Shown in pieces: positions 19,719 to 58,249 of a stretch of 64,000 nt of DNA. Source of the DNA: Stegostoma tigrinum (Eukaryota). A program made the position numbers and the translations under genes. The notes beneath the pieces were generated by a model. It searched no databases and was not told the DNA's origin. It saw only the letters and a list, made by a program, of their open reading frames with translations. The DNA lies in the NCBI RefSeq assembly GCF_030684315.1, contig NC_081368.1:23865899-23929898 (forward strand), written 5' to 3'. Within the stretch, counting starts at the first letter, position 1. Each line of letters opens with the position of its first letter.

Positions 19719-19898
19719 TGAAAGCAAAAGAACTGAGGATGCTGTAAGTCAAAAACCACAAAACAGAAATTGCTGGAAAAACTCAGCAGCTTTGGCAGTT
19801 CAGAGGAAGAGTTATTCGACTCTAAACACATTAACTCAGACTTCTATCTACAGATGCTGCCAGACCTGCTGAGTTTTTCCAGCAATTTCTGTTTTGTC
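19719..19898. mobile_element. Fold-back PLE-end insertion, family B
   Basis: Perfect 32-bp inverted arms 19758-19789 / 19866-19897; imperfect TSD actaag(g)aaatt at 19708-19718 and 19899-19910; degenerate hammerhead in the loop. Confidence 0.75.
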
Positions 19899-23929: not shown

Positions 23930-24014
23930 AATGCTGCTTGGCCTGTAGTGTTCATCCAGCTCTACATTTTGTTATCTTGGATTCTCCAGCATCTGTAGTT
24001 CCCATTATCTCTGA
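23930..24014 (+). mobile_element. Very short PLE family A terminal insertion with TSD
   Basis: atgctgcttggcctg...gttcccattatctctga flanked by taagttgagaca (23918-23929) and taagttaagaca (24016-24027). Confidence 0.8.
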
Positions 24015-24207: not shown

Positions 24208-24333
24208 AGGAGATAATGGGAACTGCAGATGCTGGAGAGTCCATGATAACAAAGTGTGGGGCTGGATGAACACAGCAGGCCAAGCAGCATCTTAGGAGCA
24301 CAAAAGCTGACGTTTCAGGCCTAGACCCTTCAT
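24208..24333 (-). mobile_element. PLE family A terminal fragment
   Basis: gagataatgggaactgcagatgctgg...gacgtttcaggcctagacccttcat; truncated inside the hammerhead core. Confidence 0.85.
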
Positions 24334-32474: not shown

Positions 32475-33800
32475 TTCCTGGACCTCTCGGTCTCTATTTC
32501 TGGCATCCACCTGGAAACTGATATCCATTTTAAGCCTACCGACTCTTACAACTACGTAGCATACTCCTCCTCTCACCTACCTTCCTGTAAAAAGGTCATT
32601 TCCTATTCCCAATTCCTTCGCCTCCGCCGCATCTGCTCCCGAGATGAGGCATTCCACTCCTGAACTCCCAGATGTCCTTTTTTTCAAGAACCGCAACATC
32701 CCCTCCACAGTGATCGAAAATGCCCTTGACTGTGTCTCCCACATTTCCCGCAACACATCCGTCACACCCCCTATCCGCAATAACCAAAACAGAATCCCCC
32801 CTCGTCCTCATGTACCACCCCACCAACCACCAAATCCAGCACATCATCCTCCGATATTTCCGCCATCTGCAATCTGACCCCACTACCAAAGACATTTTTC
32901 CCCCCCCACGCTTGGTGTTTTCAGGAGGGACCACTCTCTCCATGACTCCCTTGTACGCGCCACACTCCCCTCCAGCCCCACCAGCCCGGGCAGTTTTCCC
33001 TGCAACCGAAGCAAGTGCGACACCTGCCCCTATACCTTCCCCTTCATCCCAATCCCAGGCCCTATGAAGACTTTTCACATCAAACAGATGTTCACCTGCA
33101 CATCTGTCAATGTGATATACTGTATCCGCTGTTCCCATTGTGGCCTCCTCTACATCGGCGAAACCAAATGAAGGCTTGGGGACCACTTTGCGGAACACCT
33201 TCGCTCGGTTCACACTAAACAACTGCACCTCCCAGTTGCGAACCATTTCTCCTCCCCCTCCTACTCCTTGGATGACATATTCATCCTGGGCCTCCTACAT
33301 TGCCACAATGACGCCACCTGAAAGATGCAGGAACAACATCTCATATTTCGCTTGGGAACCCTGCAGTTCAAGGGTATCAATGTGGACTTCACAAGCTTCA
33401 AAATCTCCCCTCCCCCGACCACATGCCAAGACCAGCCCAGCTGGTCCCCACCTCTCTCAACATTCCTCCCACATCAAGCCCCACCCCCATCCCCTACCCA
33501 CTAATGTCATCCCACGCCCCCCTGACCTGTCTGTCCTCCCTGGACTGACCTATCCCCAACTCCCCACCTACATTTACCTTCACTGGCTCTAACCCCACCT
33601 CTTTGACCTGTCTGTCTCCCCTCACCCTATCTTCTCCTTTATCCATCTTCTATCCGCCTCCCCCGTCTCCCTATTTATTTCAGAATCCCCTTCCCCTCCC
33701 CCATTTCTGAAGAAAGGTCCCAACCCGAAACATCAAGCTCTCCTGCTCCTCTGATGCTGCTTGGCCTGATGTGTTCATCCAGCCTCACACCATGTTATCT
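32475..33800 (+). mobile_element. PLE family A 3' half
   Basis: PLVLMYHPTNHQIQHIILRYFRHLQSDPTTKDIF, CNRSKCDTC, IYCIRCSHCGLLYIGETK; hammerhead CTGAAGA...GAAACATC at 33707-33734; ends at gttatct without the tail. Confidence 0.9.
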
Positions 33801-33899: not shown

Positions 33900-36100
33900 C
33901 AACAAGCACTTATGTCTTTAACATAAAGTGCCTTTAACATTAAAAAAAATTCCAAGGTCCTTCATAGGGGCATAATCAGAGAAGGGTTAAATTTTTTGCA
34001 GGGCCAAATACAGGATGTGACAAAATCTTAGCCAAAGCTGGAAGTTTCCAACAAGACCATAAAATACCAAAGTGACATTGAGGAAGTTAGACAAAGACTT
34101 GGAAAGCATGAACCCAGATTGCAGAAGTTTAGCCACTAATGGTAACAAAAGAGCTAGTGATGTAGAAGAGATCAGAGTAGAGGAGTAGGAACAAGATGAG
34201 CATTTTAAATTGGAGTAAAGGACTAGAAACCAATTTAAGTCAGCCATGTCAGGAACGAAGAATGGGTAGGATGCTGTGGATTAGGTTATGGGGCTGTAGT
34301 AATTTGGACAGGGGACCATAGGAAGCATGCCAAGTTTGAAACTAACAAAGACATGGGCTAAGGTAAAGGCTGAAATTATATGTTACAGAGATGGAAATTA
34401 GTTGTCTTCATGACGTTAAAGACTGATATTGGAAGTTAAATTCTGGGTCAGATAGGATGAGAAGTTGTGAACTGTCAGAATAAGTTAATATCAATGACTG
34501 GGAGACGGCTGTATCCAGTGGTGAGTGTACAAAATTTGTGGTGAAAGGCTGAAAATATTTATGTCACTTGTTTCAGTATTCAACTGAATAACATTATCTA
34601 CTGTCAAAGACTCATGATGGACATGTGTACTGGCAAGTGAGAGTTTGGGGAGGGTAGAATTTTGTGACATTAGCAGATACATGAAATCTGATCCCATATC
34701 TGATCCCATGTCATCAGGCCCAGGGCACAGTGATTAAAAAGGACTATAATTGGGCAAAGATAATGGGAACTGCAGATGCTGGAGAATTCCAAGATAATAA
34801 AATGTGAGGCTGGATGAACACAGCAGGCCAAGCAGCATCTCAGGAGCACAAAAGCTGACGTTTCGGGCCTAGACGCTTCATCAGAGGCTCTGTGCTCCTG
34901 AGATGCTGCTTGGCCTGCTGTGTTCATCCAGCCTCACATGTTATTATCTTATAATTGGGCAAAGTTTGATGGTTTGGTGCTAATTGTTGCTGGGATGGTC
35001 TATCTAAGATTAGATAGATGAGAGTGCACCTACTGGCAGCAGTACCACTCAGCTGGGCAATGGAGAAGCTTTTGTTTTCAATTCACTCACAGTATGTGGG
35101 CAATTCTGGCTTGGTCAACATTTATTGCCCTTCCCTAATTGCCCTTGAGAAGGTGTGGTGAGTTGCCTTCATGAACCACTACAATCTATCTGATGTAGGT
35201 AGACCCCCCAACGCCATTACAGAGTTCTATGCTTGTGACCTAACAACAGTGGGGGAATGGCAGAGCAGGATAATGTGTAAGTTGCCCAAGGTAGAGTTTA
35301 AGTAGGAACAGGACATGAAAAGCATTCTAATCATACAGAAAATCATTTGTGACTTTGACTAATGATGTATCAGCATTGTCTTAGAACTGTAAACCTAATC
35401 AGAAAGATTCAAACATTGACTTGTTGGTAAGAAGGGCATAAACATAGCAAGTGAAAGCACTTCCGAGATCTTTAAACATGAAAGAGAGGCTGGAGATGTG
35501 GCTTCAGTTTACATCATAGAAGGGTCAAACATGGGTTTGAGGTTGATTGAAGATGATTGTGAAAGGGATGAGAATACTACGTAAGGAGAATGAATTATTT
35601 AAGTATAACTAGAATGGGAATGCAATGTTTAAATTGGGTTATCAGCAGTTCACTAGAATCGGAATCATGGAGACAGGAATTTGTCTTATGGAATATCTCA
35701 GAAGCCATGAGAAGAAATTGGATTTGGACTAGAAGAGTCTATGGCTTCAGGATTAGATTGGAGGGAAAGCCTTAATTTGCTCTCCTGGGAGAAGAAAAGG
35801 ATGCTGCAGCACTGAGGTGCTCAACAGATTGTCATGAAGAATGAAACAAAGAAGCTTATGAGTTTCATGCACTTATTGTTGCAAGTGATTACAATACAAA
35901 ATTGTGTAACATGTGCTTAGAAATGTAGAAATGCATCATGTGGGCATCATTTGTTTGATAAAAATAAGCTAGGCTGTTTAGAAAGAATAAAATTATTCGG
36001 CAGTTCATCTCTACTTTCCTTTATATTTCACACCATCATATACCAGACATCTGAGGTATCCATCCTCTTTCGCAATGTCATGAAATTTGGCTATTGTTGC
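33900..36100 (-). mobile_element. Ancient L2-like LINE remnant
   Basis: L2-type 3' end (aagtgcctttaacat...ccaaggtccttca) and a degenerate FHxYADD-like segment at ~34665-34690; heavily diverged. Confidence 0.5.
34760..34949. mobile_element. Fold-back PLE family A insertion with 15-bp TSD
   Basis: TSD tataattgggcaaag at 34745-34759 and 34950-34964; 60-bp arms 34791-34850 / 34891-34950 (1 mismatch); hammerhead on the minus strand at 34857-34884 in the loop. Confidence 0.92.
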
Positions 36101-37039
36101 TTTTGAACAATTCTAAATGTAGATAATACCATTTTAGTATCATGATCAGCACAATTTTACTAGATACAATAGAGAGCATATTTACGGAATTACATCATTG
36201 TCTACATCTGTACAGACAAAAAATATAACTTTTAAGTAAACTATTTAAAAACTTTAAATATTTGGTATAGAAACTAGATGTAAATAGTTGGCTATTATTA
36301 GTTAAGATAACCTGATAGAAAGAATTATAGAAATTTACAGCATGGGGAGAAGTCATTTGGTTTAGTACATCCACACTAATCAACATTTAGCCATCCAGTC
36401 TAATCCAACTTTCCAGCTCCTAGTCTGTAGCCAAGAGGGTTATGACAGTTCAAGTGCCCATGCAAGTACTTTTGAAATGTTGAGAGGGTTTCTGCTTCTC
36501 CCATTCTTTCAGGCAGTGAGATCCAGATTACATCACACCCTGAAATTGACTTGACTTTTTCTGAATCCTGTACTACTTATCCTAAATTTGTCTTCTAGTT
36601 ATGAACCTCTTAAACTATGTTTTCTATAGCACAGTGACAAGAAACATCACAGTACACAACTATAGCTGGAAAAAATATCCAAAAGCTTCCCTCTTGAACA
36701 GCTGCAATAATTTTAGAAATAGCCAACAGCTAAATAAATGAAAATGGCATGAGGAAGGAGAATTGACTACACTCAGCTTTTTATGACAAGAGACCTGAAA
36801 TGGCATATTTTGGGAAAATTTCTAAATGAATATTGAAATACTTGGTAAAATTTATAAACTGGGTATCAAAATAGGGATTTTCCCCCCCATTTTCAATTAG
36901 GACACAGATAAGAATAGAATGTGGGGAAGGAACTGCCAAACTCATCCAATCTGGGATTTTTGTTGACTATTATGTTTTTCAATGTCAAAAGAAAACTGGC
37001 AAGGTTGTCTATAGGGAAACCGAGCAGTAATTTTGTGTG

Positions 37040-37229
37040 ATAATAAAATGTGAGGCTGGATGAACACAGCAGGCCAAGGAGCATCTCAGGAGCACAAAAG
37101 CTGACGTTTCGGGCCTAGACCCTTCATCAGAGATGTGCTCCTGAGATGCTGCTTGGCCTGCTGTGTTCATCCAGCCTCACATTTTATTATCTTGGAATTC
37201 TCCAGCATCTGCAGTTCCCATTATCTCTG
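37040..37229. mobile_element. Fold-back PLE family A insertion with 14-bp TSD
   Basis: TSD agtaattttgtgtg at 37026-37039 and 37230-37243; 58-bp arms 37039-37096 / 37134-37191 (1 mismatch); tail on the right arm only. Confidence 0.92.
37103..37130 (-). ncRNA. Minimal hammerhead ribozyme motif (family A)
   Basis: CTGATGAAGGGTCTAGGCCCGAAACGTC, identical to 20489-20516. Confidence 0.72.
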
Positions 37230-37379
37230 AGTAATTTTGTGTGTACGATTTATGATGCTTATTCTGGAACTTGGGTAGAAGTAAGAAAATAAAAAGGAAG
37301 AAACGTTAAGATAGCAGGGAGAATATTAAAAAAGCACTATCAGAAGTGAAAACAAAACAAGGTAATAGCAAAGAGAAAT

Positions 37380-38180
37380 TACGTGAACCACAAGTCGAAA
37401 AACAAAATGTCAAGCAGAATCTAGTGTACACACGATCTGTGGTGTAAACGGACTGCCGATTTGAAGCTGACGTACAGCTAACAAATCATCCAGATAAACA
37501 ATTACCTATTCTTCGACACAGCAGCCGGAAAATCAAAACTGCCAAATCACTCGATGATTTAAATTCATCATCAAGAAATGTCCCACACGGACTCCAAAAG
37601 ATTTCTCTTCCGGCTTCACGAGCGACTTGCACTTCTATGGGACTTTCACGGAGCATAAAGGCTTTAGAAGGGGCGCTCGGGGGTGGGGAACGACCCGGTG
37701 GTCGGCATGAGACAAACTTGTGTCGAAAGTCAGAATAAATTGAAAAACTGGCCAACAGAATTTTAACTGGCGAGGCAGGTTCGAAGAAGCCTTTGAAGGC
37801 CAGAGAGGAGGGATAGCAAGTTGAAGTTGGAGGCTGCCAATCCAATGTATCTTCTCGGTTTTCAATATCACCTAAATCTAGCGTCATGATTTTTTTTTGA
37901 AACGGGAGACAATGCTTCCTTCCCCAGACTGATCCTGAGCCGCTTAGGAATTGTCTGTTGAGAATCTGCAGCGTTTTGAACAGGCCAACTATTCTGACAT
38001 GATCTTCGTAATTTATGTTATCACCTCCTGTGACATAACATGCCAAAGAATTCTAACTCAGCGGACACAGGCCATAACGAGAACCGGAAAGTGAAAATAC
38101 TCAAGTCACTTCAGGAGCAATGAACTTTTGAATAGGCTAGAGCCGGCTTCACAAGTGGAAGCATTTGCTTAAAGCGCAGA
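37380..38180. promoter_or_regulatory. Orphan CpG-retaining region (candidate promoter/enhancer)
   Basis: Many CpGs at moderate GC content, no repeat similarity seen; ETS-like CCGGAA motifs (~37525, ~37607 reverse, ~38084), TGCCAA and CCAAT motifs. Confidence 0.5.
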
Positions 38181-38269
38181 AACCATGAACTTTTTACTCA
38201 AACTACTAGACTTTTGATTTTGAAATTAATGAATTAATTTTGACATTTGCAGTACTATCTCAACGTTTA

Positions 38270-39060
38270 AAACAGCTACAACTCGCTTTAGAGGTACCAC
38301 TATCGTGCTGTAAGCTAGAGAATTCTGGGATATTGACCCAGACATAACAAAGGAATGGCAATGTATTCCCAAGTCAAGATGGTGCTGTAACTTGGAGGGG
38401 AACATGGGGCTACGGTACATCCATTGACACATGTTTCCCAAAGGAATGCGGCGCTGCCAAAACAGCTGACCCCTTCAGTGTCACGGCTGGAACCAGACAG
38501 CTGCCAACCATTTGATTTGCAGGCAGTGCGCTGAAGGAGAACTCTTTCTCCCACCCCACCCCCCCACCATGGGAACAGAAGAATTGGTTGAAGTCTTTCT
38601 TCAGTGATGGTGGAGAATGAGGTGGACCTTCTGGGTGAAGATGATTGCAAAAGCTTCAGCCTTGTCTCTTGTACTTATACTCACCTCCACCATCTTTGAG
38701 GATGGGATAATATACTCATGAAACCTTCTTCTTCCATTCAACTCTGGATGTGCAGGGCTATAGAACTTTGATCTGATACATTTGACATGTAATTAGATGT
38801 CATTGAGATGCTATTTAATATGCATATAATCCTGCTTGTAACTTCACCTGATATTATTACCTCATTTTCAGGTATATTCAGAGCTATTCCTGGCAGACAC
38901 TTCAACATTCCTTTTTTAGGCAAGGCAGATGCACTGACTAGTTGGTATAGTACATTAAAAGATTTGCTGGTCTGTGAGATTACAAATTATGGTGGAGTGC
39001 GAGTCTGTTGCTGCTGTTGATCCTCATCATCTCATGGATGCCCAGTTTCGCACAATCCTC
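38270..39060 (-). mobile_element. Family X LINE fragments (antisense)
   Basis: Reverse complement of the family 3' end (ttgacccagacataacaaaggaatggcaatgtattcccaagtcaagatgg) and internal blocks. Confidence 0.6.
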
Positions 39061-39089
39061 ATAAGCTGATGGTGATCAAGTGTTAACCA

Positions 39090-39194
39090 CCTGAAATAAA
39101 AACAAAGTACTGGAGAAACTCAGCAGGTCTGGCAGCATCATTTGAGAGAGAAACAGTGATAACACTTTCAATCCAAAATGACTCTTCTTCAGAA
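39090..39194 (-). mobile_element. PLE family B terminal fragment with hammerhead motif
   Basis: Minus strand CTGAAGA-AGAGTC-ATTTT-GGATT-GAAA-GTGTT at 39161-39192, then gatgctgccagacctgctgag. Confidence 0.7.
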
Positions 39195-40789
39195 TGCTTT
39201 TATTTGTTTTAAACAGTGTCTTGTGAGGTATGACACTTAAACCTGATATGAATCTATTTATCATTTGGCATGTTGGTAGTGTCAATGCAGTGGAAGATAT
39301 TTCTTCAATGACAGACATTGCACAGGAATTGAAAGGTCACTTGTATCAGTACTGTCATGTATCAGCACCAGATAGGTTGATGAGGACTGTTCAACATACT
39401 GATATTTATATGTTGAATTAGGCAACTAAAAATTTCAGATAATTACAAGGACTTAGCACAGGCACTGGCTTCAGCTTTCCCTTGTGACACCCTTACCCTG
39501 TCTAAAAGCCACCGCCTCCTGGGGAAGAACTCAACACTAGATATTTTCATCAATTGGTTTATTTTCAGATGTTATTACACACCTTTGGAGCAGGAGGGAC
39601 TTGAACTAAGGTCTCCCAGCTCAGTACATCACCACTGTATTACATAATCCCAGAACATAGCTCTATTTCATATTTCTTTGTTCAGGGAAGCTGTTACACA
39701 ACTCTGGATGTTTTTCCTTCCAGCACCAAAATCACCTCTGTTTCTAATCAAAGAACAATTATCATCCATTACCCACCAGATCAAGTGCAACAATAATAAA
39801 TGTAGGGGAGATGAGGGAAAGACACAGGAACTAAATTAAAATCAAGCTGGAGGCAAAAGAACCCAACCCTATGTGCTTTCCAAATCACCTGTGTTACCTT
39901 TTCTTCCCACTTTTCTACCAACAGATCATGCAGGTTTTTAATTAAAATAAAAAATTACAAGCACTGCCTATAAAGAGCAGTGCAACAAAAACAAACTTGA
40001 GAAAATGTAGGGAGAGAAGGAGAGGACAGAACCAGCACTAGAAAATTTTTAATCAACCTGTTCAAAGATGTGAAAGTACTTTTTAATCAGCCCATTCAAA
40101 TATGTTATGATACATCCCTAGAACAGCTGGGACATGGACCTGGGCCTTCTAGCTCAGAGACAAGGACACTAAGTCCAATGAATATCACCTGCTGTCATTC
40201 AACTCTGAAGCTGTTCTGGTTGACCTTGTTAGGTATCTGCATTTCTAACATTGACATGAACAACTTCAAAAGGATTCTTTTTCTGTGCTGGTTCTTTAAC
40301 TCATTGATACATCTCAGTGATAGTGCATCTAAACAATTTAAGTGATAAATATTGAGATTTCCTATCCAGAGTAAATTCTATGACTGTTCTTTCTTCAGTA
40401 CTTCTTCCGAACAGTGCTCAACACATGGAGGAGTGCTAACGTATCAGCTGAAGAATGGTTTAGGTGGAAATCAGCCAAAGATTTCCTTACCAACTGAAGT
40501 AAAATAAATTCAGTTGCATTGTTATTATCAGTTTACTTTAATTTTTTATTATGATAGAAACATTATTTTTTAACTGCAATTAAACGTTTGGCTAAAATGT
40601 TTTTCCTGTGCTTATTAGAATAGTTACCAGTTTACTCCTTACTTTTCTTAGAACTTCCTGACAGTCCAACTTCCTTTGTCTTGCCAGCACTCCTTTCTTA
40701 GTCATTATATTGTTTTAATTTGAACAATTGGTCAAATTATAAAACATGTTCTTTGCCATCTGAACTTAAACATTGGGATTCCTTAGACA

Positions 40790-41830
40790 GTTCCTACAAG
40801 ACCCTCGGCCACTTTCATCTAGAAGGAAAAGATCAGCAAATACATAGGAACACCATCACTGGCAAGTTTCCCCGCAATCCACTCACCATTCTGACTTGGA
40901 AACATATCATGTTTCCTGCAGTGTCAGTGGTTCAAAGTTCTAGAAATTCACCTATAAAGCATAGACTGCAGCAGTTCAAGAAGGCAGCTCACCACCTCCT
41001 TTTCAAAGGCAACTAGGGCCAAGAAATAAATGCTGGCCAAGCCAGTATGACCATCATTCCACGAATGAATGAAAAAACTCCCAGTGAAACACAAGTGAGT
41101 GTGGAAAAGAACAAAAGCAGATAAATGCATGGTTACGAAGATGCTGCATGAGGAAGGACTTCAGATTCCTGGGATATTGGGACCATATAGGGAGGAGAGA
41201 GAACCTGTCCTTGTTGCTTGCAACTAAAGAGCCAGGACCAATTTCCTTTTGATGCACTCTGTTCATGCTGTTGGGAAGCATTTAAGCTAATTGGGCAGGG
41301 GCATGGGAATCAGAAGGTATTTTTATACCAGATGAATATCGGGATGCATAGAACACTGACAGAGACAGACAGCACTAGAGATTATTTATTCATTTGTGGG
41401 ATCTTGGTATCACTAGCCAGACCACCATTTTTTGCCATCCCTAGTAGTTCTTGAGAAGCTAGTGGTGAGCTGCTTAATTGAACTGCTACTGTCTATTTTG
41501 TGTAGGTATTCCCTCAGTGATGCTTCGGGTTAATTCCAGGATTTTGATCTAATGACACTTAAGGGATGGCAATATATTTCCAAGTCAGGATGGTATTTGG
41601 CTTGGAGTAAAACTGGCAGTTGACGATGTTCCCAAGTCTCTGTTGCCCTTGACCATTCAGATGGTAGTGGTCATAGGTTAGAAAGATGCAGTTTAATGAG
41701 CCTAGGTATGTTTCTTCAATACATTTTGGGATGATATATAGTGCTACTATTTAGCAATACGGTGAACAGAATGGATTTGGTGCCAGTGGAGGCAGATTGA
41801 GGCCCTTAAATGCCAACTCATTGGACCAGA
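40790..41830. mobile_element. Family X LINE 3' ends (+ at 40790-41075, - at 41385-41830) around a CR1 ORF1 fragment
   Basis: gactgcagcagttcaagaaggcagctcaccacc...aataaatgctggcc and its reverse complement; WLRRCCMRKDFRFLGYWD at ~41129-41183. Confidence 0.7.
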
Positions 41831-42959
41831 ATGGCTTCCTTCTCTATTTTCACAATGTGAATCTGTAATTAATATGTTTTGGTTCCTAAACAAACAGATG
41901 AAGAACCGGAAAGGAACAAGGTTATGCCAAACTTGCATCTCACCTTGTTTCAACCACATGTGGTATGCTGTACGCAGTTTTGGTTTCCATATCATAAATG
42001 GGATATAGAAATGATTCACTAGAATAATAAGAGTTGAGAAGACATGCTTATGAAGAAAAATTGATTCTAGCTTAGGCTTGTTTTCATTAGGAAAGAAAAG
42101 GTTGAATGATGAATTAATAGAGAATTTTAAAATTATGAAAGGGCTTGATATGGTAAATGCCATATGAACAGACATCTTTTTGATCTGGCTGTGAGAAACA
42201 CAGAAATCACTGACAAGTTTCTTGTAACAAACACCTTGTGTTGTATGGCAGACTTTGAAATACCATGGTGAGAGTGATCCTTGTCAGGACTGCTGCACAG
42301 CCTATCTCAACTCCTGCAGCCTCAGTACACATCCGTTATGCACTTGGAGAGGGGACATACCAACACAATATGGCAGATGAATTGTATTAAACTTAACAAA
42401 TGAGGAGACAATTGCCTGGTTTTGGGGATTTGCATTCGCTAGATAAATAAATAAGATAGGTGTAAAGAAGATGTTTCCACATGTAGGGGAGATCAGAACT
42501 AACCATAGCCATAAATATGAGAAAGTCACCGATCAGAAATTCAGGAAAAACTTCATACCTGTAGAATGGATAACATGTCGATTTCGCTATTAGGCTGTGA
42601 GCACAGATGCATGAAGGGAAAGTTAGATACGCCAATATGGAGAAAAGTATACAAGGCTACATACCAATAGCATATACCAACGGTGCTAGGTGAAGAGGAA
42701 TGAGAAGGCACTCATATGGACCACAAATGCTAGAAAACCTATTGGGCCAAATGGCCTCATTACATTCTGTATACTTTATATAATTCTGTATATTAAGGCA
42801 GTACTGGAATGGATTCAAAAGATATAATAGAATTACCAGGTCAGCTCTAGAATCTGGGAGCACGAGGAAAGGGCTACTGGAGTTCAAAGTATATTTAAAC
42901 AGAAGGCTTCAAGATCACTCGGTCAGGATGAAGAATTGTTCCAGAAAGAATCTGAAACC

Positions 42960-43340
42960 TTGGGAGTCAAGGAGGCGGAGATGAGAGGGTGGTTTGGCTA
43001 TAGGATGAGGCTGGGGGTGTGTCCAAGCCTCCTGCTCATCCCCACCTCCTTGACCTGACACAACTTGTCCATCTTCTCTACCTATCTGTCCCACCCATGC
43101 CATTGACCAATCGCCACCACTCCCTATTTGCACTCACCTATCACCATCCCACCTACTTCCCTAGCCCCACCCCTCCTCTCTATTTATTTTCCAGCTGCCT
43201 TTCCCCTCACCCTTTCTGAAGAAGGGTCCCAACCTGAAATGCCAACTTTCCTGCTCCTCTGATGATGCCTGGCCTGCTGTGCTCCTCCAGCTCTATACTG
43301 TGTTATCTCTGACTCCAGCATCCGCAGTTCTTGCTATCTC
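42960..43340 (+). mobile_element. PLE terminal region with short inverted start
   Basis: C-rich 3' region, CTGAAGA-AGGGTCCCAACCT-GAAA-TGCC at 43216-43243, tail gactccagcatccgcagttc. Confidence 0.75.
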
Positions 43341-43749
43341 TGGAGACAATCTTAATCTGCTTCTGTTTGACTGTAATGTTAGATTCCAAAGACTCCTGCC
43401 CAAAGCTAACAAGGTTTTTGTTTAATTATACAAACAGCTTTAATAATGTCATTGGGGTTTGATCAAGGCTAAGGCTGCATGTAAACAATAGTGATGGTTA
43501 CCCAGGAGATCAAAGCTGAAAGGATTCCAGAAAATCAGCGCGTTTTTCTTTGAAAATCTCTTAAGTTTCTTTGTGGGGAAGGAGAAGCAGAGGTACTCCT
43601 GACCAGCTGACCACATTTACACCTGGGACTTAACATTGACCCTCTGTTTGATAATCTGTGATGAAAACTGCAGTGACTGTAACAAGGTCAGTGGAGTCCC
43701 AACGATGAGTTCCCTGACTGGGGCTGTTAACCTGGTACAATCGGAGCCG

Positions 43750-44621
43750 TCAGAAATAATGGGAACTGCAGATGCTGGAGAATCCAAGATAACAAAGTGT
43801 GGGGCTGGATGAACACGGCAGGCCAAGCAGCATCTTAGGAGCACAAAAGCTGACGTTTCGAGCCTAGACCCTTCATCAGAAAAGGGGGATAGGGAGAGGA
43901 TTCTGAAATAAATAGGGAGAGAGGGGGAGGCAGACTGAAGATGGATAGAGGAGAAGATAGGTGGAGAAGAGAGCATGGGTGGGGAGGTAGGGAGGGGATA
44001 GGTCAGCCCGGGGAGGACAGACAGATCAAGGGGGTGGGATGAGGTTAATAGGTAGGAAGTGGAGGTGCAGCCTGAAGTGGGAGGAGCGGATAGGTGAGAG
44101 GAAGAACAGGTTAGGCAGGCGGGGACGAACTGGGCTGGTTTTGGGATGCAGTGCGGGGAGGGGAGATTTTGAAGCTGGTGAAATCCATATTGATACCATT
44201 GGGCTGCAGGGTTCCCAAGCGGAATATGAGTTGCTGTTCCTGCAACCTACGAGTGGCATCATTATGGCACTGCAGAAGGCCCAGGATGGACATGTCATCT
44301 AAGGAATGGGAGGCGGAGTTAAAATGGTTCGCGACTGGGAGGTGCAGTTGTTTACTGTGAACTGAGCGTAGGTGTTCTGCAAAGTGGTCCCCAAGCCTCC
44401 ACTTGGTTTCCCCAATGTAGAGGAAGCCACACCGTGTACAGCGGATGCAGTATACCACATTGACGGATGTGCAGGTGAACATCTGCTTGATGTGTGAAGT
44501 CATCTTGGGGCCTGGGATGGGGGTGAGGGAGGTGGTTTGAGGGCAGGTATAGCACTTTCTGCGGTTGCAGGAGAAAGTGCCGAGTGTGGTGGAGTTGGAG
44601 GGGAGTGTGGAGCGGACAAGG
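43750..44621 (-). mobile_element. PLE family A 3' part with open GIY-YIG domain
   Basis: ORF 44111-44503 FTCTSVNVVYCIRCTRCGFLYIGETKWRLGDHFAEH...LPVANHFN...EQQLIFRLGTLQPNGIN; full terminal repeat and tail. Confidence 0.93.
43852..43879 (-). ncRNA. Minimal hammerhead ribozyme motif (family A)
   Basis: CTGATGAAGGGTCTAGGCTCGAAACGTC; core intact, one G-U pair in stem II. Confidence 0.68.
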
Positions 44622-45119
44622 GATTGACAGATATAAATAGGAGTGTCAGAGGTTCAGCTCACTCTGACAGCTGGCTCTGAGGAAGCCAGACAAGTTTCAA
44701 GTATTGTATGCATGTGAATAATGGGTTACAGGAACACCAGCCTCTGGAGTTATTTCAAAAACAATTGTTAACCTACTTCATCAAATTCTTAGTTTGCCTG
44801 ACATAAAAACATTGAGAATCTATAATCTGTTGCTTATACAATCTGGAAATTTTCTAGCCTGTATACTGACTGATGCACTGATTAAACTGATACATTATTC
44901 AAGACGTACATTTGCAGAATGAGAACTTATGATTGAAGGCGCTCTTTAACTATTGTAGGTAGAAGTCATCACTCATAGCTTCGAAAATAGGCTAAGGCTT
45001 TCAGAAAATAAGTGAAAACACAAATATGTTGTAAAGTTGATTCATTTATCAAATTTAATTGTTGTTGTATAAAATATAGAATATAAGATTGACAAGGATT
45101 AAAATTATGAACTAATGAA

Positions 45120-48100
45120 GAGCTTATCCCGGACTTACAGCAGTACATTCTAGAACCTATCAAACATCAGACTATTCTAGACCAATAAGCAACAAGATAG
45201 AATTAGTCAATAACCTGATGGTAAGGGAACCTCTCAATGACAACAATCATAACAATCACGTTTAGTTTAAAGGGAGAATAAAGACTTGGATATAAAGACT
45301 AGTGTTTACAACATAAATCAAAGTACCTGCAACAATATAAAGACAGAGCTGGCTAAAATGAACGAAGAAACTAGGTTATAAAAGGTTAGACAGTAGAGAA
45401 GTAGTGGCAGAATTTTAAGGAAATATTTAATAAATCTTAGCAATGATATATTCCAGTGGGAAAAACACTGAGAAGGATGCGTCATCCATCACTAAATAAG
45501 GAAGGTATCAAATTGAAAGAAAAATTCTACAAATCTGTGATAGTGTTAGATCAAAAGATTGAACAAATTTTATAAACCAGCAAAGAATTATGAAAAAAGT
45601 GGGAGAAAATAAAGCATGAAACAAACGAAATGCAGTTGGTTCTACTATAATGTGCGTCCCACCAACGCGAACCGGCGATAATGCAACCGATGAATAGGAG
45701 AATGCTATTTCTAAATTGCAAACTTGTGTTGGCTATAACACAATTCCATTGGTGCTCCTCATCTTTGGATAGTGTACCAAGCAATTCTTCCACTAATGGT
45801 GAGCCTTCTGAAAACATAAAAGTGCTATTTCTACCCCCAAACACAACCTCTCTTCCCTCAACCCATTGACTAGGGTGCAATAACAGTTTTTCAAATGTAT
45901 TATTTATGGTGCACATTTAAGAGGCTGATTAGAGTCACCGAGCGGGATAAGGACAGTATTTGTCAATTTTGGAAGAGCTTTAACATCAGGACTGCAATTG
46001 GCACTATTATGGAACTCTGGGTGATATCAGTAAGGACTGCTTGCATGCAGTTTAGTGGAGGTTTCTCCAGATTTTTTCAAGATTTTAAAGGTTTTGATTC
46101 ATCAGAGGAGCTCCCAAGGAATCAAGAACATTGTGTTGATCTTGCAAAGCAAGTTGTATTTGAAAAAGTGGAGAGTGAGGATGTTGAAAAGCTGCTTGAG
46201 TCCAACTGTGAAGATCTCTCTAAAGCTGACCTGTAACAATTTGGCGCTGAGGAGGAAGTGAAAGCTGGGGATGAAGATGAAGTCCAGGATGCTGCACCAT
46301 GAGAACTTTCCACTTCTGTTTTGTCCATCCTGAGGGAAATTGAGAAGCAGTTGCAGCTCTTAGAGGACAACAATTACAATGCAGAACACAGCAGGGTAGC
46401 AGCTCATGGGATAAGATCTTATTTGCCACCCAATGAACAGCTTTTTCATGAAAGAAGAAAAAAGAGCAAGGCAGTAAAAGCTGGATGTCCTTTTAAAGAC
46501 ACCCCCCAAGAAACAGCCAGAAAACAATGACCCACAGCCATATACCTCTGGATTTTTTTTTTGCCCTAACCCTGCAGCCATAACTGAACCTGAAGGTGAT
46601 AATGTTGACGATGATGATGATGATGACCCTCAGCCCCTGCATTAACAACAGAGCAACCTCAAAATCTCCTCCCCATCAAGTCACCTTGACATTTTTTCAA
46701 GGCAATGTGTTAAATTTACCATTATTTCATTATTAAATATGAATTAAACATTTATTCAAATTTTGCTATACTTCGTGTTAGGCTTTTGAATGATTTTTGA
46801 GTCATTTTGAGTGGTATATTTTGGTGGTCTGCCCCTAACCCTGCTTTTCGCATAGCGTAATTTTCTATAACTCAATGTTATGCAGGAACACAACTATTGT
46901 GTTGTAGAGGAACCGACTGTAGTAAAATTACCAGATGAAAAGAATTTTGTTCAAGTATTTAAATTAGAAACAAATAAATAAAGTTAATTCTGGTCCTGAG
47001 GAAAATGCATTTGGGGGAATTGATAATAGAAATTTAGGCATTGAATGCATATTTAATTAGCTGCAGAAGACTTAGAAATTTTCCTAAAGGTATTTGAAAA
47101 TTAAGAGGTGAACAGGATGGAGGAATTTAAAACAATTGCCATCACCAGAGAAAGGTACTGAGAAAACTATTAGACCTCAAGTCTCTCAAATCTGCTGCCT
47201 AAACTCATAAAAGAAGTAGTTGCAGCGATAGAAGCATTGGCTACTATCTTCCAAAATTCCTTGATTCAGCAGATTGGAAAATAACTAACATCATTATTCA
47301 AGAAAAGTGGGAGACAGAAAGCAGGAAACTACAGATCAGTTAGCCTAACATTTGTCATCGAAAAGAGTCCCTTATTAAAGAGATTATAATAACGTACTTT
47401 GAAAATTTCAAAGTAATCAAGCAGAGTCAATATAGTTTTGTGATGGAGAAATCATGTTTAACAAGTTTGGTAGCATTAATTGAAGAAGAAACAAATAAGA
47501 CGGATAGACGGAATCTGTGAATGTGGTGTAATTTCAATTTCCAAAATGCATTTAAGTATGACCTCATTGTGTAAGGGATAACATATTATCAATGTTTAAA
47601 GGACTGGTTAGCTAACAGGAAGTACCTGGTAGGGATAAATGACTGGCACCAATAGAAGAACAATGTACCATTTAAATTAAGAAAGATTGCAGAATTGGGA
47701 GGTACATAGAGTCTGGGAATCCTAGTACATGAATCAAAGAAAGTTAATTCCAGGTACAGCAAGTAACAGGGAGGCAAATGGAATGCCAGCATTTATTGCA
47801 AGGAAAATGGAATATATGAATAGGCAAATTTTAGTGCAGCTGTACAAGACCTTCCTGAGACTACATCTACTGCACTGTGTACAATTTTGGTCTCTTTATT
47901 TGAAAAAGGTAGTACTTTCATTAGAAGTGGTTCATAGAAAGTTCACTTGATTCATTTCTGGACTGAGGGCTTATTCATTGAAAAAGGTTGAGCAGGCCTT
48001 TATCCATTGAAGTTCAAAAGAATGAAAAGAGGCTGATGAGTGACCCTCTAGAGGTTTATAATATCATGAGGGATACAGATAAAGTCAATAGCCAATGTCT

Positions 48101-48780
48101 TTTTCCAAGGATAGGGGAGATCTAAAACTAGTGAACATAGGTTTAAGGTGAGAGGGGAAAGATTCCAAAAGGAACCTGACAGGCAACATTTTCACACAGA
48201 GGATGGTGAAAATATGGAATGAGCTGCCAGACCAAGTGATAGAGGTGAGTACAGTTACAACATTTAAAAAGACATTTGGACAGATGTATGAATAGGAAAG
48301 GTTTAGAGGGATATGGGCCAAACATGGGCAAATAGGACTAGTTCAGTTTAGGAAACCTGGTCGGCATGGATGAATTGGAATGAAGGGTTGTTTCCATGCT
48401 ATATGGTTCAGACTCTAGGTGCTTTTTTTTGAAACATGTAAGATCTTGAGAACATTTGACGAGGTAAGTTCTAAGAGGATATTTCCTCCTGTAGGATACA
48501 TACATCTCAGGGTCTCAATTTAAGGATATGAGGTCTCACTTTTAGGACAGAGCTGAGAAGAAATAATTCCTCTTAGAGGATCATTATTCTGTGGAATTCT
48601 TTTCCCCAGAAAATAATGGAGGCTCACTCGAGGCTAAAGTAGATAGACTTTTGACTGACAAACGAGACAATGGTTTATGGGTTTCAGACGGAAAAGTAGA
48701 GTCAAAGCCAAATCAGATCAATCAAAATCATATTGAACAGTGGAGCAGACTTGATGGGCTGAAAGCTATATTCCCAAAAT
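45120..48780 (+). mobile_element. Old CR1 LINE hosting nested insertions
   Basis: Degenerate ORF2 (KAGNYRSVSLT, RQILVQLYKTFLRLHLLHCVQFWS) interrupted by a Tigger element and by a second CR1 3' end at ~48030-48415. Confidence 0.75.
45633..46919 (+). mobile_element. Tigger/pogo DNA transposon, internally deleted
   Basis: TIRs cagttggttctactataa / ttgtagaggaaccgactg flanked by TG and TA; transposase relics NIKVLFLPPNTTSL, QFWKSFNIRTAI, EDVEKLLES. Confidence 0.85.
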
Positions 48781-50929
48781 CTATCTTTGAGTGTCACTGT
48801 TTTATTATTCCCAACTTTAAAACAGAAAACCTAAAAGATATTTCAGAAGTGCATAGTATATGGGAACCTTGGTGTGACTATGCATTTTCAGGTTCATATG
48901 CCAATTAATACAAAGTAGAAGCATTGGCATGGAAACCTGGAGATGCCCACTTTCTTAGAAATCATAGGGTACAATCCCTGTGCTAGAATTTTGAGACCTG
49001 AGGTGATCCCAATATTGGACCTCAGGATTATTTCCAAAGTGTTGACCTTACTCGACCTGTTATTGTCATGAAAAGGCTCAAGGGAGGTTGAGTCTTTTGT
49101 CAGGATGAATAGAGACTGCTGGAAACTTTATCTCATTCTAAACTTTCGTATAATTCTTTATATAGTACAGGTTAGCACAATACTTAATAGAAGTTTTCTC
49201 TGTAGAGTTTTGTTAAATGATCACTTACATTTTAGATGTATATTATTACACCTAACTTATGAAGTGTGATTAAAAGTTGATCTACAACATTGCTCACCTA
49301 AAAAAGAAAGGGAGAGGACAGTATGGCTTAGGTGAGGAATGGTGACTGGTGGCTTGTGGGTTATGGTCTCTACCAATACGATATATGGTATACCAAGGAC
49401 TGTATTGGTTCAAGAAAGCAGCTCAGTTCCACCTTCTCTAGAGAAATGAGAGATGGGCAATAAATGCTTGTCCAGCCATAATGTTGATATTTTTAAGACA
49501 AATGAACAAAAATTTATGTGCATTTTGCCAGCCACTTTGGAGGCCATTTAGCACCTGAAATAAAGGCTCAGAAAACTAAGCATGAAATGCCTGTATTTCG
49601 AGGCCATTGCCTGCCACACAAAGTGGCATGTTTAACATGTAAGTACATATTACAACAATCACAACACAAAGGAACAACAGATATTTATGGACAGCAAGTA
49701 CAGCAGGTGTTAGAGTCAGAATTAACTCTGTGTGGAGTTGGAGGAACACAATAGGTCGGGCAGCATCAGAGGAGTGGGAAAGTTGATGTTTTGATACGTT
49801 TTCAGTTAAATGACTCCCCATATCCTGAATCGAATATATAATTCACAACTTTAAAGGTAGCTTTGATATTTTATTTTCACAACATGAAGAGAGTACAATT
49901 TCTTAATCTTTCAGTCAGATTTGATGCAACATATCAGTATATATGTAATTAAAGGTGTAAAGATTATATCTTTTTACTCTTTAAGGTTTGCGTGTAGAAT
50001 AAAATTGTAAAAAGATTTTTAAACCTAAAGACTGAGAAAAGAATTCCTGCATGCTTATAAACAAATTACTGGAACTCATTATGAATTGTGTTTACACTAT
50101 TGCTTTGCAAGCAGTAGGGAAGGAGAGACAAGACAGCACAGTACGGGGTGTGTATGCAGAGTGAGATTCAGCTCCAACAGCTTGATTTCTTTTGCCCAAC
50201 TGTGAACGTTTTTGAATGCCAGAGATCATCAGCCTGGCAAAAACTCCCTGATTGGCTCCTCAGCAGGTAAACAGGTTAGGTATTAGCAATAGAGAGTGAT
50301 AAGCCCCCAGACTGCTGGAAGACCAGGTTCTATGTCTCTGTTTCTCTGCAGTAGAGTAACTCAAGAAGCCAGCTATTTTTTTCCCCCTCCAGTTACTGCA
50401 AGCTATTTCCTTTAACCAAGAGAATATTTGTAATAGTGCACCAATTACTCTATGTCTCCTACAAAGAAGTGAAAGAATCTGGAGGCGATCAGAGGACAAA
50501 AGGTACAAAGAACAAGGAAGCAAAAGTAGCATCTCATCAAATCTGTGGAATGCTGCTATTGAAGGTTGTTTCTCCAGTACTTTCCTTTTTACCTACATCA
50601 CTAATTTTTTTTTTGCTTGGCTGTGTCTGCTTTATTATGATCAACTGGGATATTGGGCTATAAATTGTGTCCTACTGTTCCCAGAATTGTACCAAATGTT
50701 AAAGATTTTTAAAACATGTACACAGTATCCCTATTTTCCTGACTTTTGTATCAAAGTTGATAGACAAGACAGACCAGGTTTCTGCAGTGACTAATGTTTA
50801 TTATTTGTTAAAATAATTAAACTATAGCCACAGGCAAACAGATATAAAGCAATAACATACATAGCTACTAACTAAAATTCTAAAAATCATATGTGCACAC
50901 AGATACACACAAACATATAAGGAAAATAG

Positions 50930-51030
50930 ATACAAAAACAGAAATTTCTCAAGAAACTCAGCAGATGTGGCAACATCTGTGGAGGGAAAATAGAGTCAAT
51001 GTTTTGGGACCAGCATTTCTTTAATGAGCT
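50930..51030 (-). mobile_element. PLE family B terminal fragment
   Basis: acaaaaacagaaatt...aaactcagcag...catctgtggag, matching the arms at 19758 and 39100. Confidence 0.65.
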
Positions 51031-51539
51031 CAGAAAGTTCAATTCATGATAATGCAAAGCTAATTCTTAAAACAACTGGCAAACATTGGTTAACATCTAA
51101 GCTATAATATGGAATCAGAATTATATTGTCTTAATCCTACACAGATATACTGACACAACACAAAAGACAACAGATTCTGCAAAGATTATTTGCTTTCCAA
51201 AAAAGGCACAAAAAATCTCGTTGGCCAAGGATCTTAAAGAATAGAATCTGATGAATCCTCCAATCCTCAAAGTCCACCAGGTTTCTTATATAAAAAAAAT
51301 CGAACTGATGCCAGGTATAGATTGGTGGCATATCTTCAGTTATCCTGGAAAACAAACTGGATCCAAGTCTTTGGAAAGTGGTGAGTCAGCTTTTCAGAGT
51401 TTATGAGGCATTCAGAAATACTGATATTTTATAGTTTTTATCAGATTCCCAAGAATTTACTGTGATGGAGGGAGGGAGAGAAAGATACTTCCAGCTTCAG
51501 GGGCTTTTTTTTTGCTGAGTTTGTTGAGTTATCCACAGT

Positions 51540-52120
51540 TTAATCTGGGTGAGGGTGAGATGCCACCTTTTGGGAGATCAAATGTTAAGGAAAAGTATAC
51601 AGTTAACGTCAGGATTCTGAATAGCATTGATGTACAGAGTGATCTTAGAGTTCATGTCCACAGCTCTCTGAAAGTGGCCACACAAGCAGATAGGGTGGTA
51701 AAGAAGGCCAATGGCATTCTTGCCTTTATTGGTCCAGCAATTGAGTACAAGTGTCAGGGTGTCATGTTTCAGCTTCATAAGTTGGTTACGCCATGGCTAG
51801 AGTATTGTGTTCGATTCTGGTTGCCACATTACAAGAAGGATGTGGAAGCTTTGCAGAGGGTGCAGAGGAGGTTTACCAAGATGCTGTCTGGATTACACAG
51901 TATAGCTATGAGGAGAGGCTAGAAAAACCCAGGTTGTTTGCTCTTGAATGGTAGAGGCTGAGGGAAGACTTGATATAATTTTATAGAATTCCGAGATGCA
52001 TAGATCGGGTTGACGGCCAGAATCTTTTTCCCAGAGTTGAAATCTCTAATACTAGGGGGCATGCTTTTAAGATGAGAGGGGGAAGTTCAAAGGAAATGAA
52101 AGGAGCAAGCTTTTTGTTTT
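51540..52120 (+). mobile_element. CR1 LINE 3' RT fragment
   Basis: ORF 51512-51922 DLRVHVHSSLKVATQADRVVKKANGILAFI...ALQRVQRRFTKML. Confidence 0.88.
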
Positions 52121-53665
52121 GTACAGAGTGTATCCTGGAGGACTGAGATAAATACAAAGAAAAGAACTGCATTTTTTTTGCGTTCACCCTCAGTTTCCAT
52201 TGGAAATTAAACAGCATTGTAAAACATTCAAGGAAAACAAAAGCAGCAGTAAGTGAAAAAAGGTTACTATACAGAAACTTGTGACTCACATGGATCAAAG
52301 AAAAACTAGGCAACTTCAAATATACCAGTGTCTGTTACTTACTGTCAGATGTTTGTGATATTCGATACAATTAATAAGGCAATGCCTGATGCACTGTGAC
52401 TGCAGAAGCCTGACATTCACAATACATTGTTGCACTCAGTGCTTCCAGGAAGGTGACCAGCACCATCTAGGTACCAGTGCACAATCTGCCCAGATGTGAT
52501 GATCATATTAAATTTGTGGCATCTCCCAAATATTCAGCTGTGACTGACCAGCATTAAGAAAAGCTTAGGCTTCTTGGGTGCACACACACCCAATTAATTT
52601 CCTGTGTCAACACTGGGGCTCTGAAGGCCATTAATTTTCCTATAAATGTTTTTTCACGTCCCCACTCTAAATTCCTGATCAAAAACTCAGTGTTTTACAA
52701 ACATATTTGTTCTGGTTCAATATTCAGGCCTCTGCTCTCTGTAGAAAATAGAGTACATTGTAAGATTTCCAATATCAACAAAAGAAGCAATGACAGACAT
52801 TATTATAGAAGCTCGTAACTCAAACCAGATGAACCAGAAAAAGGCAATATAAATCTGAATCGCAACAGTCAAAATGTCCCCTTTTGAATTAGAATCGCAA
52901 TGCCAGGACTTAAAAAGTCGGGCAATACTACCTCGACCAAGGTCCATTGCTTAGAATTTTGTTTAGTGTCATTTAAAAATATTTTAAAGTAGTGATGCTT
53001 TATGAAGTCAACAATGCAATAATTATGAATATTGTTAGTGGTAAAGGACTGAAAATGTTGATGGCAATTGTTCAAAAATAATCCAATGTTACAGAGAACA
53101 ATGTTACACCCCTAAGGAGAAAATGTCCTCCTTGTCAAAAAAGACAGTCAAGTAAAGAGGTAAGAGAGAACATAGAACTGAATTTTTCAAACATGCAAAA
53201 GACTGTGCAGATCAGGTTGAATGGAAATGTAGCAAAAACAGGTAATACAAGCACAAAAAGTATGTATGAAAAGAAATGTATAAATATAAATCAATACAAA
53301 GAGAACACCAATTCCGTTAGGAAGAAATGGAGTCAGAAGCAATATGGACTTCTTGAAAACTGTTAATGGTAATGCTGTTAACGAATATAAGGAAATGGAA
53401 GACATTCTGAACAACAGCTTTGCATTATGATTTACTGATAATGAAGGGGTTAACATGTTGGACATCCCAAAGAAATTATTATAGGATCAGGGCCAGGGTC
53501 TTAAGAAAACTAACTGATGTAAAGTAACAGCAATGGAGTAGATAATTAAGCACTTAAGAGGGACAATGTCCAGGACTACAAAGGACATAATACCTTTTTC
53601 TTAATCTATAACTTTTGACCAGGAAGCAATCTTGTATGAAAAATTCATAACTTCTGAATCTGTCA

Positions 53666-53840
53666 GAGATAATGGGAACTGCAGATATTGGAGAATCCAA
53701 GATAACAAAGTGTGTAGCTGGATGAACACAGCAGGCCAAGCAGCATCTCAGAAGCACAAGAGCTGAAACATCAGCTTTTGTGCTCCTGAGATGCTACTTG
53801 GCTTGCTGTGTTCATCCAGCCCCACACTTTGTTATCTATG
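53666..53840. mobile_element. Fold-back PLE family A insertion with 10-bp TSD
   Basis: TSD gaatctgtca at 53656-53665 and 53841-53850; ~67-bp arms 53700-53766 / 53771-53837 separated by only 4 nt. Confidence 0.88.
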
Positions 53841-53904
53841 GAATCTGTCATTGGGTTTAAGAATGTATGAAAATTACTTTTAAGTTTAATTACATTGCAC
53901 CAGT

Positions 53905-54215: not shown

Positions 54216-54482
54216 AATCAATTGTGAAGTGATCAATTATAATCTTCTTTGATAATAACTAATACTGGTCCACATAAGCCAATGCCTGTTGACCTGGAAG
54301 CAGGAAAGAAGCTAAGAGAAAAGCTGTGTGGCTGGCAGTCACAAAGGAGAACAGCAGATACAGAAGATGGCTGCAAACAGAGGTGCTGGAAGGTGAAGAT
54401 GATTAAAGCACAGATGTAGACACAAAGGAAAAGAAGGCAGAAAAAGAAAGAAGAGCTGTGAATTCTTGTGAGGGGTACAAGA

Positions 54483-54572
54483 GAAGGGTCTAGGCCCAAA
54501 ACGTCAGCCTTCCTGCTCCTCTGATGCTGCTTGGCCTGCTGTGTTCATCCAGCTGTACACCTTGTTATCTCA
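54483..54572 (+). mobile_element. PLE family A terminal fragment (tail-less)
   Basis: gaagggtctaggcccaaaacgtcagc...cttgttatctc. Confidence 0.8.
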
Positions 54573-58211: not shown

Positions 58212-58249
58212 AATAATTATAAACTAATTATATGGACAGTTAGAAGATA

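Follow-up and report, generated by a model that had tools for sequence, protein, structure and literature searches.

Penelope-like elements (PLEs) are the sister group of telomerase. How they integrate, and how their inverted repeats and one-sided tail arise, is stated as open in the accessible parts of two papers (PMC8557442, PMC11167929). In the available text on EN+ PLEs as published, an inverted copy is frequent, a tail of 30-40 bp is optional and the duplication is variable (PMC8557442, PMC3846280); the accessible parts of the former also give the DKG and CCHH definitions of the group. For the anole Poseidon element PAc, the portions consulted of PMC11167929 describe nicking and extension of both strands in vitro, with two internal start sites bounding the tail. 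The features of the minimal type I hammerhead used here for comparison were taken from PMC4209133, in which the in vivo role of PLE hammerheads is stated as unshown.

The window, a stretch of 64,000 nucleotides from Stegostoma tigrinum, contains three short inserts near 34.8, 37.1 and 53.7 kb. We consider it likely that these belong to the short end of a size series of head-to-head insertions which a single, very common Penelope-like family has left across the genome. Each insertion probably arose separately, when the element's RNA was copied onto the two ends of a staggered cut.

Three inserts and their parent family

Arms were numbered from the predicted hammerhead cut, the base immediately following it being +1. 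Sequence comparison revealed that in each insert the element's terminal repeat is present twice, head to head, as delimited by BLAST, between exact direct repeats. Insert 1 has a left 15-bp target-site duplication (34745-34759), a tailed arm on the minus strand (34760-34886, about -29 to +97, or to +101 by BLAST), a 4-base joint, a tail-less arm on the plus strand (34891-34949, +7 to +65, or to +66 by BLAST) and the right duplication (34950-34964). Insert 2 has 14-bp duplications (37026-37039 and 37230-37243), a tail-less arm on the minus strand (37040-37133, -30 to +63/64) and a tailed arm on the plus strand (37134-37229, +7 to +102). Insert 3, which belongs to an older subfamily, has 10-bp duplications (53656-53665 and 53841-53850), a tailed arm on the minus strand (53666-53766, -1 to +100, or to +102 by BLAST, 91% identical to the reference copy) and a tail-less arm on the plus strand (53765-53840, -7 to +73) overlapping the other arm by 2 bases. 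As the first-pass annotation had described, the tail was confined to a single arm in all three, and the hammerhead motif lay in the tailed arm at 34.8 kb (34857-34886, minus strand, one stem II base changed) and in the tail-less arm at 37.1 kb (37103-37133, minus strand), with only its last 8 bases left at 53.7 kb. A single copy of the duplication at an orthologous empty site was found in a relative (organism B) for the 37.0-kb locus only; none of the organism B contigs bridged the 34.8-kb site.

Other copies of the family also lie in the window: a long, 5'-truncated and broken copy on the minus strand (20387-23005) with RT and GIY-YIG remnants and a terminal repeat bearing hammerhead and tail, which served as the reference copy; a 5'-truncated copy with a GIY-YIG frame and a tailed end (43750-44623, minus strand); a lone tailed arm whose partner was not found (24210-24333, minus strand, -24 to +99); and another on the plus strand (23931-24014, +19 to +102) with a 12-bp duplication containing one mismatch. 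Pfam searches with the broken frames of the window gave only a weak GIY-YIG match and a PDB search gave no match. A natural copy, L105, has one open frame with RVT_1 (E=5e-5) followed by GIY-YIG (E=0.003), both scores being under the Pfam cut-offs. Its motifs PADKGG (DKG) and VVYCIHCTRCGFLYIGET, with two His downstream, fit CCHH with two Cys between GIY and YIG, and its RT and EN are separated by a CX2-5CxxC linker (CNRRKCYTC), as in the Neptune/Nematis type, to which the family may belong. In three near-full-length copies, two of which begin at -29 and -26, the terminal repeat and tail run on into the N-terminal coding region. The tailed and tail-less arm ends are about 36 nt apart, matching the 30-40-nt tail of EN+ PLEs, and the inverted truncated copy and target duplication that characterize the group were both present. 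Judged by its sequence, the parent family is thus an EN+ Penelope-like element, with RT followed by a C-terminal GIY-YIG, in agreement with every feature tested.

Pairing of the arms and the target site

A census of 1.12 Mb, in regions partly centred on exact arm matches and hence leaning towards young copies, yielded 54 pairs with at least 88% arm identity, most of them two bare ends; the 27 of 81 pairs below this identity, which were set aside, comprised 23 tailed plus tail-less pairs and 4 scored as tail-less twice. A hold-out of 69 loci, three of which yielded no pair, gave 66 pairs. One tailed and one tail-less arm were found in all 54 census pairs, in 63 of the 66 hold-out pairs and in 84 of 85 junction-selected loci, a set that includes duplicates. 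The arm ends, called fixed in the first-pass annotation, proved clustered but occupied windows of several bases, +61 to +65 for tail-less arms (84/107) and +96 to +103 for tailed arms (88/107). The supposed class of about 180-190 bp dissolved into a size series of 108-2735 bp with the three inserts at its short end, only 4 of 54 pairs measuring 175-200 bp and 21 measuring 200-250 bp. The joints gave 50 distinct signatures in 54 pairs; a best-hit DNA search with the 37.0-kb insert, being biased to the query joint, was excluded from this count and from the hold-out but included in the target counts.

Duplications of at least 10 bp flanked 46 of 54 census pairs, compared with duplications of at least 11 bp in 4 of 300 mismatched flank pairs, and are therefore not due to chance. 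No duplication was found in 7 of the 54 pairs or for 72 of 91 testable single arms, both of which count against the reading favoured here. Single arms numbered 50 tailed and 46 tail-less, of which 8 and 11, respectively, had their own duplication of at least 12 bp. The modal duplication was 14 bp, and 14-bp duplications had A at -7 in 37/43 and T at +7 in 33/43, with flat composition 40 nt further out; in the pooled hold-out, A was at -7 in 74/112. These target counts left out duplicate loci and duplications outside 12-18 bp. Both duplication ends are flanked by a mirror-image motif, roughly AAMMA at -8 to -4 with A/G at -3, which lends support to the staggered, symmetric cut and recurs in the hold-out.

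The first-pass annotation had read the inserts as independent two-primer products, with two priming sites on a staggered cut, and had named identical joints, random arm ends and the lack of a single-copy target at empty sites as contrary outcomes. All three went the other way, the empty site at the 37.0-kb locus, so that its interpretation is supported, although it had missed the size continuum, the hot spots of inner ends and the apparent common template of the arms.

Inner joints, template and alternatives

The hammerhead motif, as read from the sequence, matches the minimal type I PLE hammerhead in its CUGAnGA core, extra base before stem II, G-C closing pair, GAAA, palindromic 15.2-16.2 and GUC, and it is carried by the tail-less arm in 31 cases and by the tailed arm in 9. 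Its predicted stem I is of 2 bp only, which speaks against cleavage; Rfam did not call a hammerhead, giving only sub-threshold miRNA-type hairpin matches, and folding of the single strand (monomer) did not yield the hammerhead shape. Self-cleavage is a prediction for which the joints at +1 are the one, indirect, line of support.

Inner ends fell at -33 to -22 in 65 of 204 arms, and 27 were at +1 to +11 compared with 5 at -10 to 0 (p=1e-4). Joint patterns were tallied by eye over the first 50 or 100 places listed, mostly on the largest contigs. Among the first 50 of 1368 places, 28 were perfect joints on the 4-base palindrome at +1; the corresponding figures were 13 among the first 50 of 204 for the palindrome lying 5 nt upstream and 11 among the first 50 of 132 for that at +28. 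The zone -8 to -21 gave 1844 joints, with looser anchors admitting older families, which counts against the favoured reading; the +1 peak thus stands about 15-fold over its upstream neighbour and only about 1-4-fold over stem II joints. The joints likely mark the RNA start (about -31) and the predicted hammerhead cut. It is possible, if less likely than not, that the +1 hot spot reflects, instead of a hammerhead cut, a microhomology that is favoured or copying that halts where an RNA fold begins, and -31 may similarly be a stop at a C-rich tract instead of a transcription start. Palindromic and AG-overlap joints place the end no better than +1 to +3, ends spread up to +8, stem I is weak, and for anole PAc the accessible parts of PMC11167929 describe hammerhead cutting as not needed and RNA reads as not ending at the cut, which likewise counts against the favoured reading. 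However, those joints in the 50 rows listed that lack microhomology have their end at precisely +1, three of them being blunt +1/+1 joints and several others containing inserts, and among the listed joints neighbouring 4-base palindromes are used far less.

Both arms appear, from sequence comparison, to derive from one template, a relation overlooked in the earlier annotation. In 46 of 54 pairs the two arms had their inner ends in a common zone (p=2e-13), four-site haplotypes agreed between arms in 84 of 97 pairs (shuffles: mean 37, maximum 49) and in 49 of 59 of the hold-out, and private rearrangements were seen in both arms of the same pair. The 8 mixed pairs with inner ends in different zones, including the inserts at 34.8 and 37.1 kb, count against the favoured reading in that cutting or stopping must have intervened after one copying event and before the other. 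It is unlikely that each target end was copied from a separate RNA of the same source locus within one particle. The arms cover the same sequence, so that a single RNA would need strand displacement, dimeric RNA is considered the active form of minimal hammerheads (PMC4209133), and mixed -30/+1 joints number 1079; yet two equal RNAs predict tailed-tailed and tail-less pairs, which made up 0/54 in the census and 3/66 in the hold-out, as well as independent 5' ends, whereas the observed ends are strongly correlated.

Still less probable is a snap-back, in which a single cDNA would fold, copy itself and halt before the tail, with later central deletions making the arms unequal, a scheme related to the self-priming proposal in the available text of PMC3846280. 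Shared variants, correlated ends, arm ends at most 10 nt apart in 26/54 pairs and short snap-back-like inserts after the +1 end in several joints all fit such folding. On the other hand, 16 of 54 pairs have a tail-less arm that extends 5' beyond its partner by 10 nt or more (by more than 1 kb in one), and 12 have a tailed arm that does so, such that neither is simply copied from the other. Intact duplications surround 11 tail-less singles, young pairs (8/15) show the asymmetry no less often than older ones (20/39), and in the accessible parts of PMC11167929 copying of RNA in vitro begins at either start site. Very improbable, and largely refuted as a general source, with secondary spread of a few stubs possible, is the amplification, as units, of a small number of fold-back masters, perhaps a single one, that existed beforehand and were either MITE-like or derived from a source copy's inverted 5' end, since recurrent joints (some 770 for the +1 palindrome, extrapolated from the first 50 listed) and near-identical copies of the 37.0-kb joint among the best hits are set against 50 distinct joints in 54 pairs, the same joint in four subfamily haplotypes with matching arms, hammerheads on either arm and a continuous size range. 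MITEs are defined by uniform size and interior, symmetric terminal repeats and a short fixed duplication; sizes of 108-2735 bp, 50 joints in 54 pairs, asymmetric ends and duplications of 13-16 bp do not fit a MITE.

The enzymatic steps of copying RNA onto both ends of a staggered cut are those that we infer from the insertions. A symmetric, probably dimeric enzyme would place one nick in each strand, at a spacing of about 14 bp that leaves 3' overhangs, and both target ends would prime reverse transcription on the same RNA, near +100 and near +64. Both cDNAs would extend to the RNA 5' end, about -31 if uncut and +1 after hammerhead cleavage, or might fall off earlier where priming took place at the downstream repeat. 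Joining of their 3' ends, through microhomology of 1-12 bases, as blunt ends or across short templated inserts, would be completed by fill-in synthesis. Most of the short stubs would result from priming within the 5' repeat, just 65-130 nt from the RNA start. More tentatively, double-ended priming may be the normal integration route, with a symmetric dimer cutting a mirror-image target 14 bp apart and its two RT sites loading a single RNA at points about 36 nt from each other. In tens of thousands of stubs the joints would then record both the RNA start and germ-line hammerhead self-cleavage. If so, they would be genomic evidence that the minimal Penelope hammerhead cuts in vivo and that the cut RNA is still copied.

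Comparison with known systems

The layout and the two start sites are already published. EN+ PLEs, including Adineta Pen2a, share with the present family, in the parts consulted of PMC8557442 and PMC3846280, head-to-head repeats, a tail at one end, a duplication around the unit, a hammerhead in the repeat and RT followed by GIY-YIG; in contrast to those accounts, the present family has a near-absolute tail asymmetry, a 14-bp duplication peak and mostly bare-end pairs. A search of mostly open-access literature yielded no account, for PLEs, of strict pairing (paired twin priming), of a symmetric target or of joints at the cut site. The stubs give exact predictions for the existing in vitro system, namely nick spacing, target motif, one start site per strand, same-RNA origin and ribozyme-cut joints, and thousands of seemingly MITE- or miRNA-like hairpins in such genomes would be dead-end insertion products.

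Anole PAc shares with the present reading two-strand nicking and extension, two start sites and a predicted dimer, but differs, in the accessible parts of PMC11167929, in having no strand difference in start site, a preference for cutting at ATT and no description of paired products. The present family has a CX4CxxC linker, which Penelope/Poseidon lack. Non-LTR retrozymes (bioRxiv 10.64898/2026.07.22.740005), in the portion available, likewise derive from the Penelope terminal repeat, are short and non-coding and bear a hammerhead, but form head-to-tail arrays with a hammerhead per unit, whereas the present stubs are head-to-head and have often lost the hammerhead; the three inserts are therefore not retrozymes. 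Tandem units were present at a separate locus, L151. L1 twin or dual priming, as far as described in the accessible text of PMC2837659, is similar in that a second nick primes a second cDNA on RNA, inverted pieces lie within one duplication and the joint has microhomology. In L1, though, it is a variant process whose pieces do not overlap and whose products show an internal deletion and end in poly(A). The inserts, whose arms cover the same sequence and lack poly(A), are not products of the L1 type, the mode of working being similar and the product different: in the present family, double priming is apparently a main route, the second start site is fixed and the arms overlap.

Anatomy of the inserts and their parent family

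Each of the three inserts consists of two head-to-head copies (arms) of a terminal repeat, the same repeat that ends a long copy at 20387-23005, and, as the first-pass annotation had described, they are bordered by exact duplications of 15 bp (34760-34949), 14 bp (37040-37229) and 10 bp (53666-53840). With +1 set at the base directly 3' of GUC, the predicted hammerhead cut, BLAST placed the arms at -29 to +101 with +7 to +66, -30 to +64 with +7 to +102, and -1 to +102 with -7 to +73, respectively. At the 37.0-kb locus, contigs of a related organism (three samples, three studies) aligned through the left duplication copy to 37039 and then ran straight into the sequence past the right copy, apart from a single insertion of 8 bases; in two runs, a single contig spanned this empty site. 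The single-copy duplication anticipated at an orthologous empty site is thus present, which shows that DNA was inserted at 37.0 kb and that the duplication around it is genuine.

An exact 25-mer from the arm occurs 113,897 times in the 3.2-Gb genome. One natural copy (locus L105) has RT followed by GIY-YIG in a single frame, both matches being under the Pfam cut-offs, and also carries DKG, CCHH and a CX4CxxC linker; by the definitions in PMC8557442, this linker would make the parent family one of Neptune/Nematis type. In three near-full-length copies the terminal repeat and tail extend into the coding start; two of them start at -29 and -26, one of these two having an inverted arm immediately upstream. 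The three inserts are ordinary dead-end copies of this Penelope-like family.

Copies of older, related Penelope-like families, 72-85% alike, lie at 5680-7871, 32475-33800, 43170-43342 and 54482-54571, several stopping at the tail-less point. The window also holds an older palindrome (19758-19897, 140 bp) from another repeat family, single arms of which lie near 29143 and 60941, and, on the minus strand, a LINE-like open stretch of 354 aa (57159-58223; RVT_1, E=6e-20) and a GC-rich exon-like frame (18161-18652), which we take to resemble the AMMECR1 N-terminus. If this likeness holds, the three inserts are upstream of an AMMECR1-like frame.

Tails, duplications and target sites

A census of 1.12 Mb of fetched DNA, in part centred on arm matches and with arms kept at 88% identity or more, yielded 54 pairs in head-to-head orientation, plus 96 arms that stood alone. 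The tailed plus tail-less combination was found in all 54 pairs and in 63 of the 66 pairs obtained from 69 hold-out loci (duplication mode, 14 bp), confirming that arm end points are non-random; the single arms were 50 tailed versus 46 tail-less. Duplications measured 13-16 bp in 39/54 pairs and at least 10 bp in 46/54, and mismatched flanks, as control, reached at least 11 bp in 4/300. Pair sizes ranged from 108 to 2735 bp (39/54 at or below 300 bp); the proposed size class of about 180-190 bp is not typical, only 4/54 pairs being 175-200 bp. Inner junctions do vary between loci as proposed, with 50 joint signatures among the 54 pairs. Exact-anchor searches for short joints in six zones gave 9839, 1844, 204, 1368, 132 and 1079 matches, so the stubs number more than ten thousand in the genome. 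At six loci (L011, L013-L015, L022 and L027), the same filled site recurred together with its flanks on contigs C13 and C827, as part of a segmental duplication.

Mirror-image copies of one motif flank the duplication on both outer sides. Among 43 sites with 14-bp duplications, A was present on the left at -8, -7 and -3 in 29, 37 and 28, and T on the right at +8, +7 and +3 in 29, 33 and 23, respectively; pooled over 107 sites, p was down to 3e-25, and the signal was flat 40 nt further out. The motif was seen again in the hold-out (A at -7 in 74/112 flanks), lending support to the suggested staggered symmetric cut, and would fit a symmetric enzyme with nicks on both strands about 14 bp apart.

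Inner ends and arm concordance

The inner ends of 204 arms fell at -33 to -22 (65), -45 to -34 (3), +1 to +11 (27) and -10 to 0 (5), the step between the last two zones being significant (p=1e-4). Perfect joints numbered 28 among the first 50 of 1368 matches listed for the self-complementary 4-mer at +1; for the 4-mers five bases upstream and at +28, the corresponding figures were 13 among the first 50 of 204 and 11 among the first 50 of 132, respectively. Ends exactly at +1 also occurred in blunt joints and in joints with inserts; among 100 mixed joints listed, 17 started exactly at +1 and 12 more were +1-compatible (counted by eye). We read -31 as the probable RNA start and +1 as the predicted hammerhead cut. 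Structure-induced stops at both positions would be a somewhat improbable alternative. Against +1 as a special end point, joints through stem II and the 4-mers in it are likewise common (1844), which is what annealing and subsequent trimming of cDNAs that had reached -31 would produce.

The paired arms appear to share one template. Their inner ends lay in the same zone (beyond -45, -45 to 0, or after 0) in 46/54 census pairs (p=2e-13), four diagnostic sites matched between arms in 84/97 pairs (shuffled mean, 37) and in 49/59 hold-out pairs, and rare variants and private deletions were found in both arms of a pair. Fold-back copying of a tailed cDNA, however, cannot yield longer tail-less arms or duplication-flanked tail-less singles without later deletion; the longer arm was tail-less in 16 census pairs and tailed in 12, 11 tail-less single arms had their own duplication, and arm-length asymmetry did not increase with age (8/15 young versus 20/39 older pairs). 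The occurrence of the +1 joint in four subfamily haplotypes indicates recurrent origin and speaks against descent from a single master.

In mixed joints, the hammerhead stayed on the tail-less arm in 31/40 (24/30 in L196-L225 and 7/10 in L301-L310), hinting at which of the two priming events came first. Two internally deleted derivatives were also noticed. In L077 (4277-5005), the same private deletion joint crosses both arms. L151 (about 4940-6220; C22 near 10.005 Mb) has tandem 301-bp hammerhead-bearing units in which a deletion fuses the start of the coding region, at the 5' side of the element, to the 3' end. The units face each other head-to-head, three on one side and one and a half on the other; one outer end of the locus is tailed and the other tail-less, and a duplication of 15 bp bounds it. 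It is a retrozyme-like derivative, probably inserted in the same way as the stubs, and its layout would fit copying from a tandem or circular RNA.

Proposed integration and known systems

Sequence data establish the anatomy, the one-sided tail, the duplication, the empty site, the symmetric target, the concordance of the arms and the hot spots, and from them we infer the steps of integration. Staggered symmetric nicks would be made on the target strands, one RNA would be primed by both target 3' ends, near +100 and near +64, cDNA synthesis would end by run-off or drop-off, and the two cDNA ends would be joined via microhomology, bluntly or with templated inserts. The stubs carry a testable mechanistic message. 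The head-to-head layout of these elements is already known. In the literature covered by our searches on Penelope-like elements, no description was found of the near-absolute pairing of tailed with tail-less arms, of evidence for a shared template, of a mirror-image target or of joints at the cut site. In earlier work, self-priming was proposed for the inversions (PMC3846280), minimal hammerheads were described as cleaving weakly, as dimers (PMC4209133), and hammerhead cutting was dispensable in the anole system, whose protein nicks and extends both strands, with two internal start sites bounding the tail (PMC11167929).
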